Assembly (NCBI GenBank): GCA_012008225.1
Contig: GCA_012008225.1_4768.1
Source of the DNA: a phage
Reading direction: 5' to 3' (one strand)
Length of the DNA: 61,121 bases
A model generated the notes under the pieces. That model saw only the letters and a program-made list of their open reading frames with translations, ran no database searches and was not told the DNA's origin. Made by a program: the position numbers and the translations under genes. Below are positions 19,642 through 29,239 of the stretch, in pieces (the first letter of the stretch is position 1; every line of letters begins with the position of its first letter).

Positions 19642-20520
19642 TTATTTTTTAACTGGACGTACTGGACGCTTCAAGTCCACGCCAGCCATGGCTGCCAGAC
19701 GGCCTGCTTTTTCAGGATTTTCACGAAGAATTTTACCCTGCTCAGTAAGGTTCCAACCGTCGGCACTCCACGGGTTCTTACCAGCAGCGCCAGGAGTACG
19801 TGAGCCACCAGCACCACCGCCAACGTTTCCAGGGAACCAGTGAGGTTTCTTATCCTGAATGTCCTGTAACCACATTTCTGGAGTGATCCCAGGAGTTACG
19901 CCCACACCGTCGCGTGTCACAACCTGACCGTCTTCGGTGAGCTCAAACAAACGAGAACCAATCAGTTCCACGTCGTCAATAGCTTCCGTGATCACTTTAG
20001 CAGACATTGCAGCCTTGCTAAGAGCGGTCTTAACGATGCGGTTCTTCTCTTTTGTGGTCAGCTCTTCTACTTGCTTCTCATAGGTAGAAAGTTTGTTTTT
20101 CAGCTCGTCACGTTCACGCTCAAGCGGAGTTAACTTGTTACGGATTCGTACGTTAATGATTTGCTCCAACTTTTCATCATCAACTTTATCCGCACGCAGT
20201 TTAAGCTCTTCATATTCAGCGTCGCGCTGCAAGAGTTCGTCAATATCACGTCCGTTCAGCTTACTTAGCTTACTCTTGACCGCTTTATGATCGTTGCGTT
20301 CTTTTTCAAGTGCGGATTGCAACCTGTCAATATTCTGTTTACCACCACCCTTTACACCAGTGAGGATCCACTTATCGCCTTCTTGGGAATAATACTCACG
20401 AGCATTTTCCGGGATTTCATCTTCAGAAGTATATTCAAGTTCCAATGCACCAAAACGAGGCATGGACTGGAAGAAGCCAGCGGAATAAGCTACCGCTAGA
20501 TGAATGTGATATTTGTTCAT
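19642..20520 (-). CDS. Scaffolding protein
   Basis: Coiled-coil Glu/Lys/Arg-rich central region; between portal and capsid genes; ATG at 20520 after GGAGAA (ORF-track GTG at 20547). Confidence 0.6.
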   Translation of the reverse strand: MNKYHIHLAVAYSAGFFQSMPRFGALELEYTSEDEIPENAREYYSQEGDKWILTGVKGGGKQNIDRLQSALEKERNDHKAVKSKLSKLNGRDIDELLQRDAEYEELKLRADKVDDEKLEQIINVRIRNKLTPLERERDELKNKLSTYEKQVEELTTKEKNRIVKTALSKAAMSAKVITEAIDDVELIGSRLFELTEDGQVVTRDGVGVTPGITPEMWLQDIQDKKPHWFPGNVGGGAGGSRTPGAAGKNPWSADGWNLTEQGKILRENPEKAGRLAAMAGVDLKRPVRPVKK

Positions 20521-20548
20521 AAAATTCTCCATTGTGGACCGTTCCACT

Positions 20549-24683: not shown

Positions 24684-24992
24684 TTAACCTCTTTCCTTTT
24701 CTCGGTCACATGCTTGCGTTTTTCTCCGTAGAAACTTTAGCATGGTTCTTGAACCTGACCAAGATAACACGCCTATGAACGCCCCACTGAGCCCCAGTGG
24801 GACACCATGTTCCACGTTAATTACACCTATCAAGAAACCAAAGAATGCAGAAAAAGCACCCTCTTGAATGAAGGCGCTGAGTCTGAACCTTTCTTTAGCA
24901 TCATGGGTTCTTGCAGCGTAGCCAAGGGAACCCCCTACCATCGCAATGGCAGTGAGAATAAAGACTATATTCCAATCCCAGTTCGGCGACAC
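24684..24992 (-). CDS. Holin-like membrane protein
   Basis: 102 aa with three hydrophobic segments and charged C-terminus; GTG start with AAGGGG upstream; adjacent to endolysin and spanins. Confidence 0.55.
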   Translation of the reverse strand: MSPNWDWNIVFILTAIAMVGGSLGYAARTHDAKERFRLSAFIQEGAFSAFFGFLIGVINVEHGVPLGLSGAFIGVLSWSGSRTMLKFLRRKTQACDREKERG

Positions 24993-25005: not shown

Positions 25006-25440
25006 CTATGCCATGTGGATACCCGCGAGCAAGACTTCATCAGAATAAGGTTGCACACCGTTCTCATGCTTGATAATCGCTTTCACAATCTTTAACATGA
25101 GTTTATCATCGGTCAATGAAATCGGCTGTTCTGCACCAACACCACAAGCCTTAGACACAGATTGAATATAGGCTTCAGTGTTATTTTCATTCGGCGGAGC
25201 CCAGCGCGAAATAATTTCCCGTACAGTGTCAATTCCCTTATTGCCGACACGCTTCATCCCTTCGCGGTTGCGGTAGTTTAGTAGAATACGGGTAATGGCG
25301 CGAATACCGTATTTTACATCGATAAACTGACAGAAAGAACGGTCAGTTCGTTTGTCTTCTGGAACAAGACCTTTCCAGTTATCACCCCAACGAATATTCC
25401 CTGGATTGTTATTCCGGATGCCTCGTGGTTGCACAGTCAT
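25006..25440 (-). CDS. Putative endolysin (peptidoglycan hydrolase)
   Basis: 144 aa soluble protein with N-terminal RGIRNNNPGNIR motif; called mainly by position between spanins and holin. Confidence 0.5.
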   Translation of the reverse strand: MTVQPRGIRNNNPGNIRWGDNWKGLVPEDKRTDRSFCQFIDVKYGIRAITRILLNYRNREGMKRVGNKGIDTVREIISRWAPPNENNTEAYIQSVSKACGVGAEQPISLTDDKLMLKIVKAIIKHENGVQPYSDEVLLAGIHMA

Positions 25441-25531
25441 AAAAAAGCTCCATTCAGTTAAACCGAATAGAGCATAGTTGAATTATCACACGTACACAAT
25501 CAATTATGTGCAATTAAGATTGAACGTTTAG

Positions 25532-25876
25532 TTACGCAATCCGGCAAGGACTTTGCAGTTTATCACCTTTCTTTACGCGGATTTCGCATTGCATCATACT
25601 GTAATTCGCACTGCTCTCCGGCAACACGATACTTTTCAGCCTCTTCTGCCACTTGTCTGTATTCTGTGACGCTTTCTGAATACAGTTCGGTGAGCACACG
25701 GGCGATCTGGGCGGTTGTCTTGCTGTCGGGCTGAGGGCCGGCAGCGTCACCGAGGTACTTACGGACGGTTGTGATTTCGTTGTGCAACCTGTCATTAGTA
25801 GCGCGATAATCATTAAGATCGGCAACCAAAGACTCAATGCGAGATTGGTATTGACGTTCGATAGCGTCTTTCTCAT
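25532..25876 (-). CDS. o-spanin (Rz1-like outer membrane lipoprotein)
   Basis: Overlaps the end of the i-spanin gene in another frame; signal peptide LALSLWLPILMIIALLMTGC with lipobox Cys, proline-rich mature part; start ATG at 25876 is inferred. Confidence 0.5.
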   Translation of the reverse strand: MRKTLSNVNTNLALSLWLPILMIIALLMTGCTTKSQPSVSTSVTLPALSPTARQPPRSPVCSPNCIQKASQNTDKWQKRLKSIVLPESSANYSMMQCEIRVKKGDKLQSPCRIA

Positions 25877-26060
25877 ATGCTCTTCGTTTCTCCTCCTCGA
25901 AATCAACCGCTTTCTGAGTTTCTTTTTGGTACGACACACCGGCATCGAAACCCTCCTTTCTAGCTGATTCTATGGCATTGTCATAAGCCCAGTTGGCTAG
26001 AATAACAATTAGGACAAGTAGTATCCAAGGTGCAACCTTACTAATTATTCTAAGGAACAT
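25563..26060 (-). CDS. i-spanin (Rz-like)
   Basis: 165 aa; N-terminal membrane segment WILLVLIVILANWAY then charged coiled-coil periplasmic domain; ATG at 26060. Confidence 0.6.
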   Translation of the reverse strand: MFLRIISKVAPWILLVLIVILANWAYDNAIESARKEGFDAGVSYQKETQKAVDFEEEKRRAYEKDAIERQYQSRIESLVADLNDYRATNDRLHNEITTVRKYLGDAAGPQPDSKTTAQIARVLTELYSESVTEYRQVAEEAEKYRVAGEQCELQYDAMRNPRKER

Positions 26061-26281
26061 ACCTTCTCACCAATTCCCATAGACAAGTATTGGATAGCAA
26101 GAAGAAACGCTATAGCGTCCTTCTTATCTCCTAAGTCTTTAAGAGCTTTGAATTTATCTTCAAGTTGCTGCACATGCTTCTCGAATTGTGGCAAAGCCTC
26201 AATCTCAGCCGCAGCCCCACGCATATATACTCTTGCAGCCGCTAATTGTGCATTAGTAGGATCAATCATGATGTTCTCCAA
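26045..26281 (-). CDS. Hypothetical protein
   Basis: 78 aa ORF. Confidence 0.4.
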   Translation of the reverse strand: MENIMIDPTNAQLAAARVYMRGAAAEIEALPQFEKHVQQLEDKFKALKDLGDKKDAIAFLLAIQYLSMGIGEKVCSLE

Positions 26282-26481
26282 ATTACACTATTTCGAATTT
26301 CATCATTCCAAACGTATTTCCCCTTCTCACCATTTTTATATGATGGAACAGAGAAAACGGATGAACATGGATATAGTTCTGATGTCGTTAAGCGTATACG
26401 CTTACCGTCAAAAGGTCCACCAACACAAAGGAACAGACCAGTCTTAGGCTTCTTCAAAATGGTTCCTCCCCACCTGTACAC
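26266..26481 (-). CDS. Hypothetical protein
   Basis: 71 aa ORF. Confidence 0.4.
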   Translation of the reverse strand: MYRWGGTILKKPKTGLFLCVGGPFDGKRIRLTTSELYPCSSVFSVPSYKNGEKGKYVWNDEIRNSVIWRTS

Positions 26482-26948
26482 TACGCTCTTTTCAGAGTAT
26501 GGGCTACGTCATAGAAGTTAACACCCTGACCACAACTGCTGCAATACTCACAAGACAACCGCACAGCTTCTTCGGCGCTGCAACCAGCCGCCATTGTTCC
26601 CATTAAGAACTCGAACGCACTACCTTCCGCTATAAATTCGTTAGTGTCTGGTAGACCTAATTTACCGTCACCGTAGATAGGATACACAACAAGATCTTGA
26701 GTGATCGCTATACCATAACGTGAATCCGGATTTAAATCAGAGAAAGGTTCTTTACGTCCATTCGGTGTAACACTCAGATGTTCTATGATATCAGTCACAG
26801 GACGTAGTTTACCAGACATTGCAACAAGACATAACCCAATACCTGGAATATCAACTCTGTGAACTTTATTCGTAGATGTTGCAACATTACCCCATGTGAC
26901 CTCACGATCTACAGCCAATACACCATTACGATAAGCAATTGCGGTCAT
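26481..26948 (-). CDS. HslV/proteasome-like N-terminal-nucleophile hydrolase family protein
   Basis: Starts M-TAIAYRNGVLAVDRE (Thr at position 2, as HslV TTIVSVRRNGHVVIAGD); later segment FIAEGSAFEFLMGTMAAG parallels HslV LIAIGSGGPYAQAAARA. Confidence 0.5.
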   Translation of the reverse strand: MTAIAYRNGVLAVDREVTWGNVATSTNKVHRVDIPGIGLCLVAMSGKLRPVTDIIEHLSVTPNGRKEPFSDLNPDSRYGIAITQDLVVYPIYGDGKLGLPDTNEFIAEGSAFEFLMGTMAAGCSAEEAVRLSCEYCSSCGQGVNFYDVAHTLKRA

Positions 26949-27298
26949 ATTAAACGCCCATATATGTGATAAATTTTATAAGCAGTAGAAAGACCAATAT
27001 TAAATTCTTTTGCTGCAACCTGAAATCTATTCTCTTCACCAGTGTAATTTCTAAGAAACTGATAAATTTCCTCTTTATCCAAGTTCCGGTTACGTGTGAT
27101 TGTCGAACCACCAAGCCGGCGCATGTCGCGTGTGGTCGCGAATCTTCGCTTGATCTGAGCTACTGTACCAACATACCAATACTTTGCCCCATTTTGCCCA
27201 ATAGCCGCGTGCACGCATCGCGGCGTACCTGTTTTAGCAAACTTGCGCTTTGCAAATTCACACGCGAGTTCTGCATTGTCAAAACGTTGCAAGCTCAT
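26945..27298 (-). CDS. Hypothetical protein (possible helix-turn-helix)
   Basis: 117 aa ORF. Confidence 0.45.
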   Translation of the reverse strand: MSLQRFDNAELACEFAKRKFAKTGTPRCVHAAIGQNGAKYWYVGTVAQIKRRFATTRDMRRLGGSTITRNRNLDKEEIYQFLRNYTGEENRFQVAAKEFNIGLSTAYKIYHIYGRLI

Positions 27299-27301
27299 GG
27301 A

Positions 27302-27742
27302 TCACTCCGGTAATATAATTTCGTAATCAATCAGGAAAGACCGCAGAGGATAAGCCAGTTCGTTTTCCTCTGCAATGTGGTCATAGGAATAGTATTGCTT
27401 TCCTTCAAGACCCTTCGCTGGGTCGTATACGGTTACACCTTCAAATCGCGCGTCGATAATGATCTGATGGAAAAGCCCAGGTAACTGCAAAGAGGGTACA
27501 GTCGCAAGATACAAGCGTCCAGGTCGGATCTGGTGCATACCAGCGGTCACATGCGGTTGTGCAAAGATACCTTGTCGATATAGATAACTAGCAACGTCAA
27601 TATGCCCACGAATATATTCTAGGCTAAATTCCTGGTCTACTTCTTTCGGATCTTTGTCAAGAAGCATAGCTAGGCAAGTTGCCATACAAGACATCATAGT
27701 CGGCTGGGTTTTATGGGTAATGCGATCGTTAATAGTAACCAT
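27302..27742 (-). CDS. Papain-like cysteine peptidase domain protein (C39-like)
   Basis: N-terminal QPTMMSCMATCLAMLL resembles the C39 Q...CG.ACLAM catalytic-Cys motif; downstream His in GLFHQIIID. Confidence 0.45.
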   Translation of the reverse strand: MVTINDRITHKTQPTMMSCMATCLAMLLDKDPKEVDQEFSLEYIRGHIDVASYLYRQGIFAQPHVTAGMHQIRPGRLYLATVPSLQLPGLFHQIIIDARFEGVTVYDPAKGLEGKQYYSYDHIAEENELAYPLRSFLIDYEIILPE

Positions 27743-28817: not shown

Positions 28818-29167
28818 AGCGGATCTCCTCTCGAGTATTTACATACAGAACTAACTTTATACGAACAATATAGGACAGGTGAGGTGAGGATATAAAGTGT
28901 CTAGTGACGAGATAATCTACAAACGATGAATCCTTGGCAGAGATCTAAGAGCCGCCCCGCGGCGTTACTATAACGTCCCGTGATCGTCAGTGAGGTGATT
29001 GTTACGTCATGTGACTGTTGCGCGCTCTACTGTAACGTTGTTTATTATTACACGCGTTATTATTTTTAATAGATTAGTATGCTATCTATTACATGACTAT
29101 ACTATAACGTCCAGTATAATTGCGTCTGTTACTATCCACCTGCCCACTATGTGCTGTCTATGTACGT

Positions 29168-29239
29168 GCTACCTGGTATTTCCGGCGCGTGCTGTTACCT
29201 GGTATTTTCGACACGCTCGCGCTACCTGGTATTTCCGGC
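29168..29239. repeat. Three direct repeats GCTACCTGGTATTTCCGGC (middle copy GTTACCTGGTATTTTCGAC) at 26-27 bp spacing
   Basis: Copies begin at 29168, 29194 and 29221 in the divergent intergenic region; first and third are identical 19-mers. Confidence 0.7.

Follow-up and report, generated by a model that had tools for sequence, protein, structure and literature searches.

The locus and its genes

The gene described here appears in the ORF listing as a single open reading frame with an ATG start on the minus strand of the window, by which we mean the whole stretch of phage DNA that was analysed (61,121 nucleotides). It encodes a protein of 155 aa with the N-terminal sequence MTAIAYRNGVLAVDREV (MTAIAYRNG), and is called the PPH gene below, after the family to which the protein very probably belongs. 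An initial annotation of the window had given the extent of this frame and its Met-Thr-Ala-Ile start, and both proved exact (Table 1). It had also placed the gene just upstream of the lysis genes, and the PHROG matches bear this out, as two small genes lie between the PPH gene and an Rz-like spanin gene, which is followed by the genes for endolysin and holin. The neighbouring genes are all co-oriented with the PPH gene. Its start codon overlaps the stop codon of the gene upstream, an arrangement of the sequence that suggests translational coupling inside an operon. Scans of the window for tRNA genes and Rfam elements gave no matches.

Table 1. Position of the PPH gene, its parts and neighbouring features in the window
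Feature	Position	Strand	Basis or remark
CDS, proteasome/HslV-like Ntn hydrolase, very probably PPH family	26481..26948	-	ATG 26948-26946, amber TAG 26483-26481
Thr2 codon ACC, predicted N-terminal nucleophile (Thr1 after Met removal)	26943..26945	-	sequence, conservation, alignment to HslV Thr1
Asp14 codon GAT, equivalent of proteasome/HslV Asp17	26907..26909	-	conservation, alignment to HslV
Lys28 codon AAA, equivalent of Lys33	26865..26867	-	conservation, alignment to HslV
Gly46 codon GGT, candidate oxyanion-hole glycine (proteasome Gly47)	26811..26813	-	conservation; HMMER alignment
Gly109-Ser110 codons, equivalent of HslV Gly123-Ser124 (proteasome beta Gly-Ser-Gly motif)	26619..26624	-	conservation, hhalign
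Codons 59-76, 18-residue coil replacing helix H2, PPH signature	26721..26774	-	DSSP of model, hhalign gap
Relic of ancestral C-terminus, 8 in-frame codons (CTGGEEPF) and TGA, untranslated	26454..26480	-	DNA alignment with SE1
ATGA overlap, PPH start and stop of upstream 117-aa gene	26945..26948	-	sequence ATATGA (TTA ATA TGA CCG)
117-aa protein, PHROG 17085 (unknown)	26945-27298	-	stop overlaps PPH start
146-aa protein, PHROG 4049 'unknown function'	27302-27742	-	two genes upstream of PPH
Downstream ORF, 71 aa from GTG 26481	26266-26481	-	probably over-extended
Rz-like spanin gene	25563-26060	-	PHROG match
Alternative-frame ORF in or overlapping the Rz-like gene	25532-25945	-	lipoprotein-type signal
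Terminator-like hairpin	25447-25473	-	12-bp stem, then TTTTTT
Endolysin gene	25006-25440	-	PHROG match
Holin gene	24684-24992	-	PHROG match
Head scaffolding protein	19642-20547	-	Pfam TCTP match, probably spurious
Three 22-nt direct repeats	29165-29239		spacing 26-27 bp

The second gene upstream of PPH encodes a 146-aa protein with invariant Gln13, Cys19, His92 and Asp107. Its AF2 model (pLDDT 93.8) comes closest in fold to the C39 peptidase domain of PCAT1, to Josephin and to staphopain, and the protein is predicted to be a compact papain-fold cysteine peptidase. The gene is shared among Queuovirinae phages and occurs in 197 phage records, which include Vibrio, Pseudomonas and Ackermannviridae phages. 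It was considered as a conserved partner of PPH and rejected, since the 197 records stand against 30 for PPH and the two are therefore not an obligate pair. The C-terminus of the 117-aa protein encoded immediately upstream of PPH (FQVAAKEFNIGLSTAYKIYHIY) resembles a helix-turn-helix; at the matching position in Klebsiella phage vB_Kpn2-P2 lies a non-homologous gene annotated as 'late transcriptional activator'.

Several elements around this block were recorded in passing. The three direct repeats (core CTACCTGGTATTTCCGGC) are candidate regulator-binding sites; they are found where the minus-strand arm with the PPH block and the plus-strand early genes diverge, in the intergenic region that separates the two. 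Between the spanin gene and the endolysin start there is a strong terminator-like hairpin, which might form a transcriptional boundary between the accessory-plus-spanin block and the genes for endolysin, holin and terminase. The ORF in the alternative frame of the Rz-like gene carries a lipoprotein-type signal (IIALLMTGCTTKSQ), which fits an o-spanin (Rz1-like) gene overlapping the i-spanin gene and extending past its end, and the BASEL relatives annotate an i-spanin/o-spanin pair at this site. Further along, the probably spurious Pfam TCTP match of the head scaffolding protein just equals the gathering threshold, with 24.3 bits and an E-value of 4e-5.

Over a 4-kb stretch around the PPH gene the DNA shares 90-92% identity with 9g-like siphophages that infect E. 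coli and Salmonella. These relatives, among them SE1, JenP1/P2/K1, 9g and BASEL phages, belong to Nonagvirus in the subfamily Queuovirinae, and judged by this DNA identity the window comes from a Nonagvirus. The closest annotated relative is phage SE1, a fully annotated sister genome of 60 kb, in which the PPH gene stands at the head of a long arm that runs through small accessory genes, spanin, endolysin, holin, terminase, portal, scaffold, capsid and tail. NCBI has an identical protein, which comes from an E. coli sample and bears the name 'hypothetical protein'. A search for a prophage origin in E. coli covered 5,426 complete genomes and gave no DNA match.

An amber mutation near the C-terminus

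In the DNA alignment with SE1 the PPH gene of the window has an amber TAG where SE1 has CAG (Gln156), and the frame downstream of it is intact, including the TGA. The protein is 155 aa long compared with 164 aa in the relatives and so lacks nine C-terminal residues, through a recent single C-to-T nonsense mutation. The amber allele was found on three contigs. With nine residues lost to a nonsense mutation, the PPH gene of this lineage might be in decay, or the phage might do without it. Read-through of the amber codon in a supE host would put Gln back, and this natural allele allows the truncated protein to be compared readily with the full-length one.

The ORF listed downstream of PPH is also affected. 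Because of the PPH amber truncation, the downstream gene probably starts not at GTG 26481 but at TTG 26457, which would give a protein of 63 aa (MKKPKTGLF...) as in SE1 gp29. This TTG overlaps the ancestral PPH stop in the sequence TTTTGA, and the PHROG 12090 match of the listed ORF begins at its residue 10.

Fold and homology

The protein matches PHROG 1040, 'peptidase HslV family', with an E-value of 8.2e-32. As a single sequence it had no match in Pfam at E <= 10, no significant match to PDB sequences by phmmer and no match in NCBIfam at E <= 1, the curated HslV model included; the link to HslV and the proteasome therefore has to be made with profiles or structure. For this purpose, a family profile was used, an alignment of 100 sequences drawn from the clusters of the profile search. 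When aligned by hhalign with E. coli HslV, taken from the MG1655 genome, the profile gave a probability of 96.7% and an E-value of 3.2e-10. Searched against PDB sequences with hmmsearch, it retrieved HslV at 2.2e-9 and proteasome beta subunits at 5.5e-9. Pfam PF00227 was matched individually by 33 of the 100 family members.

The AF2 model of the protein, built with 13 homologs, has a pLDDT of 92.3 and a pTM of 0.87, and its alpha-beta-beta-alpha sandwich superposes on HslV and on proteasome beta subunits. The top 50 listed matches from Foldseek against the PDB were all HslV, BPH, proteasome beta or Anbu, with a probability of 1.00 and a best E-value of 1e-6, and no fold unrelated to Ntn hydrolases was among them. 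Connectase scored 9.5 in the fold comparison, and other Ntn hydrolases (ceramidase, NAAA, penicillin acylase and bile-salt hydrolase) scored 6.5-8.4. By these fold matches HslV is the closest solved fold, and the structural alignments to it show about 16-19% identity. That the protein has the proteasome/HslV fold and is homologous to these enzymes is thus virtually certain. Its fold, its predicted nucleophile, the Asp17 and Lys33 equivalents and the homology at the profile level place it in the proteasome-like Ntn hydrolase superfamily (MEROPS T1 / Pfam PF00227).

Catalytic residues

Conservation was counted in 142 diverse aligned homologs of 125-200 aa with about 25-45% identity, and the catalytic residues whose conservation the initial annotation had wanted checked were found to be kept. 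Position 2 is Thr in 137 of the 142 sequences and Ser in 4, and position 14 is Asp in 136 and Glu in 3. Lys28 and Gly109 are the same in all 142, and Gly46 is Gly in 140. More variation is seen at Ser110, the equivalent of Ser129, which is Ser in 98 homologs, Ala in 18, Cys in 10 and Thr in 6. The claim that two internal segments parallel conserved regions of HslV also holds, as hhalign puts the N-terminal segment from Thr1 to Lys33 and the Gly-Ser segment in register: Thr2 aligns with Thr1, Asp14 with Asp17, Lys28 with Lys33, and Gly109-Ser110 with Gly123-Ser124. At Gly46 the register is ambiguous by three residues, since this glycine corresponds to Gly47 of an archaeal proteasome beta subunit in the HMMER alignment and to Gly48 of HslV in hhalign, where Ala43 falls opposite Gly45 of E. 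coli HslV. In the AF2 model Gly46 is two residues ahead of helix H1.

The protein begins with Met-Thr, as does E. coli HslV (MTTIV). Of the 173 retrieved homologs, 156 start with MT, and nearly all profile matches start at residue 1, indicating that there is no propeptide. Judged by alignment and conservation, the catalytic set Thr2, Asp14, Lys28 and Gly109-Ser110, with Gly46 as the candidate oxyanion-hole glycine, is in place and, Ser110 excepted, near-invariant. Such near-invariance in a very large phage-borne family argues that selection acts on catalysis.

Assignment to the PPH family

Fuchs, Alva and Lupas described 22 new proteasome homologs in 2021, PPH among them (PMC8665760). In their description PPH proteins are about 140 aa long, have no propeptide and no helix H2, and are found in Caudovirales; they belong to the compact group I, which has neither insertions nor the S12/H5 elements at the C-terminus, and PPH and RPC are the only homologs that lack H2 (PMC8665760). 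For the new homologs the authors reported neither an AAA+ partner that co-occurs with them nor a gene context that is informative, and the PPH reference sequence is WP_042125023.1 (PMC8665760).

In the features examined, the present protein agrees with this description. Its length is 155 aa (164 aa ancestrally), and the family median is 151.5 aa for the 142 members of 125-200 aa. DSSP analysis of the model gave a helix at residues 48-58, coil at 59-76 and the next strand at 77-83, and the gaps in the hhalign alignment fall opposite HslV residues of about 66-90, that is, opposite H2. The segment from G46 to G79 has a family median of 32.5 aa compared with 47 in E. coli HslV, and is thus about 15 residues shorter. 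In the model the chain ends 20 residues past H4, with one strand and a short helix of lower confidence (148-153), and there is no C-terminal domain of the kind that would mark RPC. The protein is encoded by a tailed phage, and PPH genes are found in tailed phages or in phage-derived regions of proteobacteria. Measured against the published features, it is in all likelihood a member of PPH; among the proteasome/HslV-like N-terminal-nucleophile hydrolases no smaller branch is known.

The initial annotation had considered a proteasome-type peptidase unusual in a phage. This view is out of date, in light of the PPH family (PMC8665760), PHROG 1040 and the RefSeq records of sister phages, which already carry the label 'peptidase HslV family'. 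The identification as such was already known: the family was named and described in 2021, the gene is labelled by annotation pipelines, and the gene of the window is an ordinary member of this described and annotated family.

Distribution and gene context of homologs

PPH homologs were found by tblastn in 30 phage records, several of them labelled as HslV-family peptidase or proteasome subunit. They occur in phages of Escherichia, Salmonella, Klebsiella, Edwardsiella, Hafnia, Erythrobacter, Caulobacter and Vibrio, and also on phage-like metagenomic contigs. An exhaustive profile search at E <= 1e-3 returned 3,947 clusters at 50% identity. With the PHROG 1040 match, these numbers show that the frame is no chance ORF.

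The contexts of divergent members vary. One precedes the terminase in a temperate-like phage, another lies before spanin and holin genes, and a third is in a nucleotide-metabolism block with genes for thymidylate synthase, MazG and ribonucleotide reductase; no recurring theme was found among them. In three unrelated phages (this one, Klebsiella phage vB_Kpn2-P2 and Edwardsiella phage PEi21) the genes that overlap the PPH start all encode about 115 aa and are not homologous to one another, and the downstream genes likewise show no homology. Ten longer relatives (181-273 aa) were inspected for domain fusions and had no additional Pfam domain. The PADLOC models of anti-phage defence and counter-defence did not match the PPH protein at E <= 1. 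No experimental (biochemical) work on any PPH member was found in the literature, and the JSS1_004 paper mentions only transcription of host hslV/hslU. Neither a conserved neighbour nor a domain fusion nor a paper gave a hint of the substrate.

Proposed mechanism and function

Since no recurring context gives a clue to the function of PPH, the mechanism offered is that of the family chemistry, and each step (maturation, nucleophile, base and oxyanion hole) is carried over from what is established for the proteasome family. Host deformylase and methionine aminopeptidase would take off fMet and so expose Thr1. Thr is permitted as the second residue for Met removal, and E. coli HslV (Met-Thr-Thr) matures in this way. 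Autoprocessing of a propeptide would not be needed. Lys28 and the amino group of Thr would act as the base for attack of the freed Thr1 hydroxyl on an amide bond, with Asp14 positioning Lys28 and a backbone NH near Gly46 providing the oxyanion hole. The enzyme would be made from the minus-strand arm, along with the small accessory genes that form a block immediately before the lysis cassette, and its role during infection would most likely be cleavage of one particular host or phage protein or peptide and not general degradation. A host or phage protein as the target had also been suggested, speculatively, in the initial annotation.

Taken together, we read the gene as encoding a PPH-family hydrolase with proteasome chemistry that acts independently of HslU and probably on a specific substrate, and we give this reading a probability of about three in four. 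The protein is predicted, with good though not full confidence, to be catalytically active, and the prediction leans toward a peptide-bond protease over another amidase or a ligase. Isolated proteasome-type subunits are usually inactive until assembled. A narrower and more tentative proposal, judged less likely than not, is that the protein is a stand-alone, minimal threonine protease that works without an unfoldase, or a connectase-like processing enzyme, which virulent phages would use against one specific target. This might, for instance, be a protein of the host that serves in stress, defence or the envelope, or one of the phage's own proteins that has to be processed before lysis, and the enzyme may act jointly with the predicted papain-fold cysteine peptidase of the second gene upstream. 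If this narrower proposal were true, the protein would be the first proteasome-family enzyme from a virus to have a defined infection role, and no active member of the family would be smaller; its quaternary structure might also be new.

The most serious alternative to an HslU-independent protease is that the protein is no protease at all and acts as a sequence-specific transpeptidase or ligase, or as an amidase on a non-protein amide, in a connectase-like manner. The archaeal connectase is a monomeric proteasome homolog which ligates rather than degrades. We regard this alternative as rather unlikely.

Relation to HslV and host HslU

A second alternative is that the protein serves as an alternative proteolytic core which recruits host HslU, or another host AAA+ unfoldase, and so redirects ATP-dependent proteolysis. 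In its favour are the closeness of the fold to HslV, the fact that HslU is encoded beside HslV in the hosts, E. coli and Salmonella, and the finding that the phage, going by the SE1 annotation, supplies no ATPase of its own. The residues involved in docking tell against it. In HslV of E. coli and H. influenzae the pocket for the C-terminal tail of HslU is formed by Phe54, Phe57, Gln114 and Ala79/Lys80 (PMC6429459). In the PPH protein these positions map to Thr52, Ile55 and Asp101 or fall in the deleted H2; they vary within the family, and the mapping depends on the alignment. The pocket residues are thus replaced or deleted and not conserved in PPH, and the missing H2 is the helix that bears the tail contacts Ala79 and Lys80 (PMC6429459). 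Recruitment of HslU is also at odds with the presence of family members in phages of alpha-proteobacteria and many other hosts, and with the report that these homologs have no co-occurring AAA+ interactor (Fuchs et al., PMC8665760). No AAA+ unfoldase is annotated in the 60-kb SE1 genome or was seen near the divergent homologs inspected, in contrast to E. coli, where hslV adjoins hslU. On balance, recruitment of a host unfoldase appears improbable.

The same evidence limits the class assignment of the initial annotation, which had proposed a phage-encoded HslV/proteasome-like Ntn hydrolase. The protein is proteasome/HslV-like, as proposed, but it is not HslV itself, having no H2, no conserved HslU-docking residues and no HslU partner. 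From the missing H2 and tail pocket and the lack of an AAA+ protein in the SE1 annotation, we infer that the PPH enzyme works without HslU.

Two further alternatives were weighed. The protein could be a pseudo-enzyme or decoy that co-assembles with host HslV, or titrates it or another host factor, and thereby blocks host proteolysis; the HslV-like fold, the small size and the place in an accessory-gene block would suit such a role. A decoy, however, has no need of Thr1, Asp17, Lys33 and Gly47, yet these are 96-100% conserved among members with only about 25-35% identity, and there is no conservation at the surface residues by which HslV contacts would be mimicked, which makes a decoy very improbable. 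Least credible of all is a phage head-maturation (prohead) protease. In its favour, the annotation of the relative shows no such protease, no part of the head module gave a protease domain, and the PPH gene is co-directional with the structural genes. Against it, the gene lies outside that module, about 4.3 kb from the portal gene with the lysis cassette and terminase genes between. The module itself is SPP1-like: its capsid protein is Gp13-like and the scaffold has a gene of its own, an arrangement that assembles without proteolysis. Its homologs in other phages sit in nucleotide-metabolism or early-gene blocks, and the known prohead proteases are, to our knowledge, all of other folds.

The hydrolase of proteasome chemistry thus remains the preferred reading. 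The PPH family is very large (thousands of clusters at 50% identity) and has kept an apparently complete catalytic set, and the remaining interest lies in its biological role. The function of a viral mini-proteasome homolog could conveniently be studied in a 9g-like coliphage that grows on E. coli K-12.

Comparison with known systems

With the PPH proteins of Fuchs et al. the present protein shares a compact single domain of about 140-165 aa, a Met-Thr start without a propeptide, the Thr1/Asp17/Lys33 set with a candidate for Gly47, and the lack of H2, of S12/H5 and of any extra domain. It shares with them also the occurrence in tailed phages of proteobacteria, the lack of an AAA+ partner and the uninformative gene context. 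No substantive difference was found; the length of 155 aa is owed to the amber mutation, the sister proteins having 164 aa. HslV (ClpQ), in contrast, has the full pair of H1 and H2 in about 175 aa, and the PPH protein is about 20 residues shorter with H2 deleted. BPH and the 20S proteasome beta subunits differ further: at 185-220 aa they possess H1 as well as H2, their pore loops are longer, and their known oligomeric state is that of double heptameric rings. A propeptide, which the PPH protein does not have, is usual in the beta subunits, and these also depend on alpha rings. Connectase, the archaeal proteasome-like protein ligase, has in common with PPH that it is an Ntn enzyme which has lost part of the H1/H2 pair and has no unfoldase, and it shows that the proteasome family is not confined to degradation.
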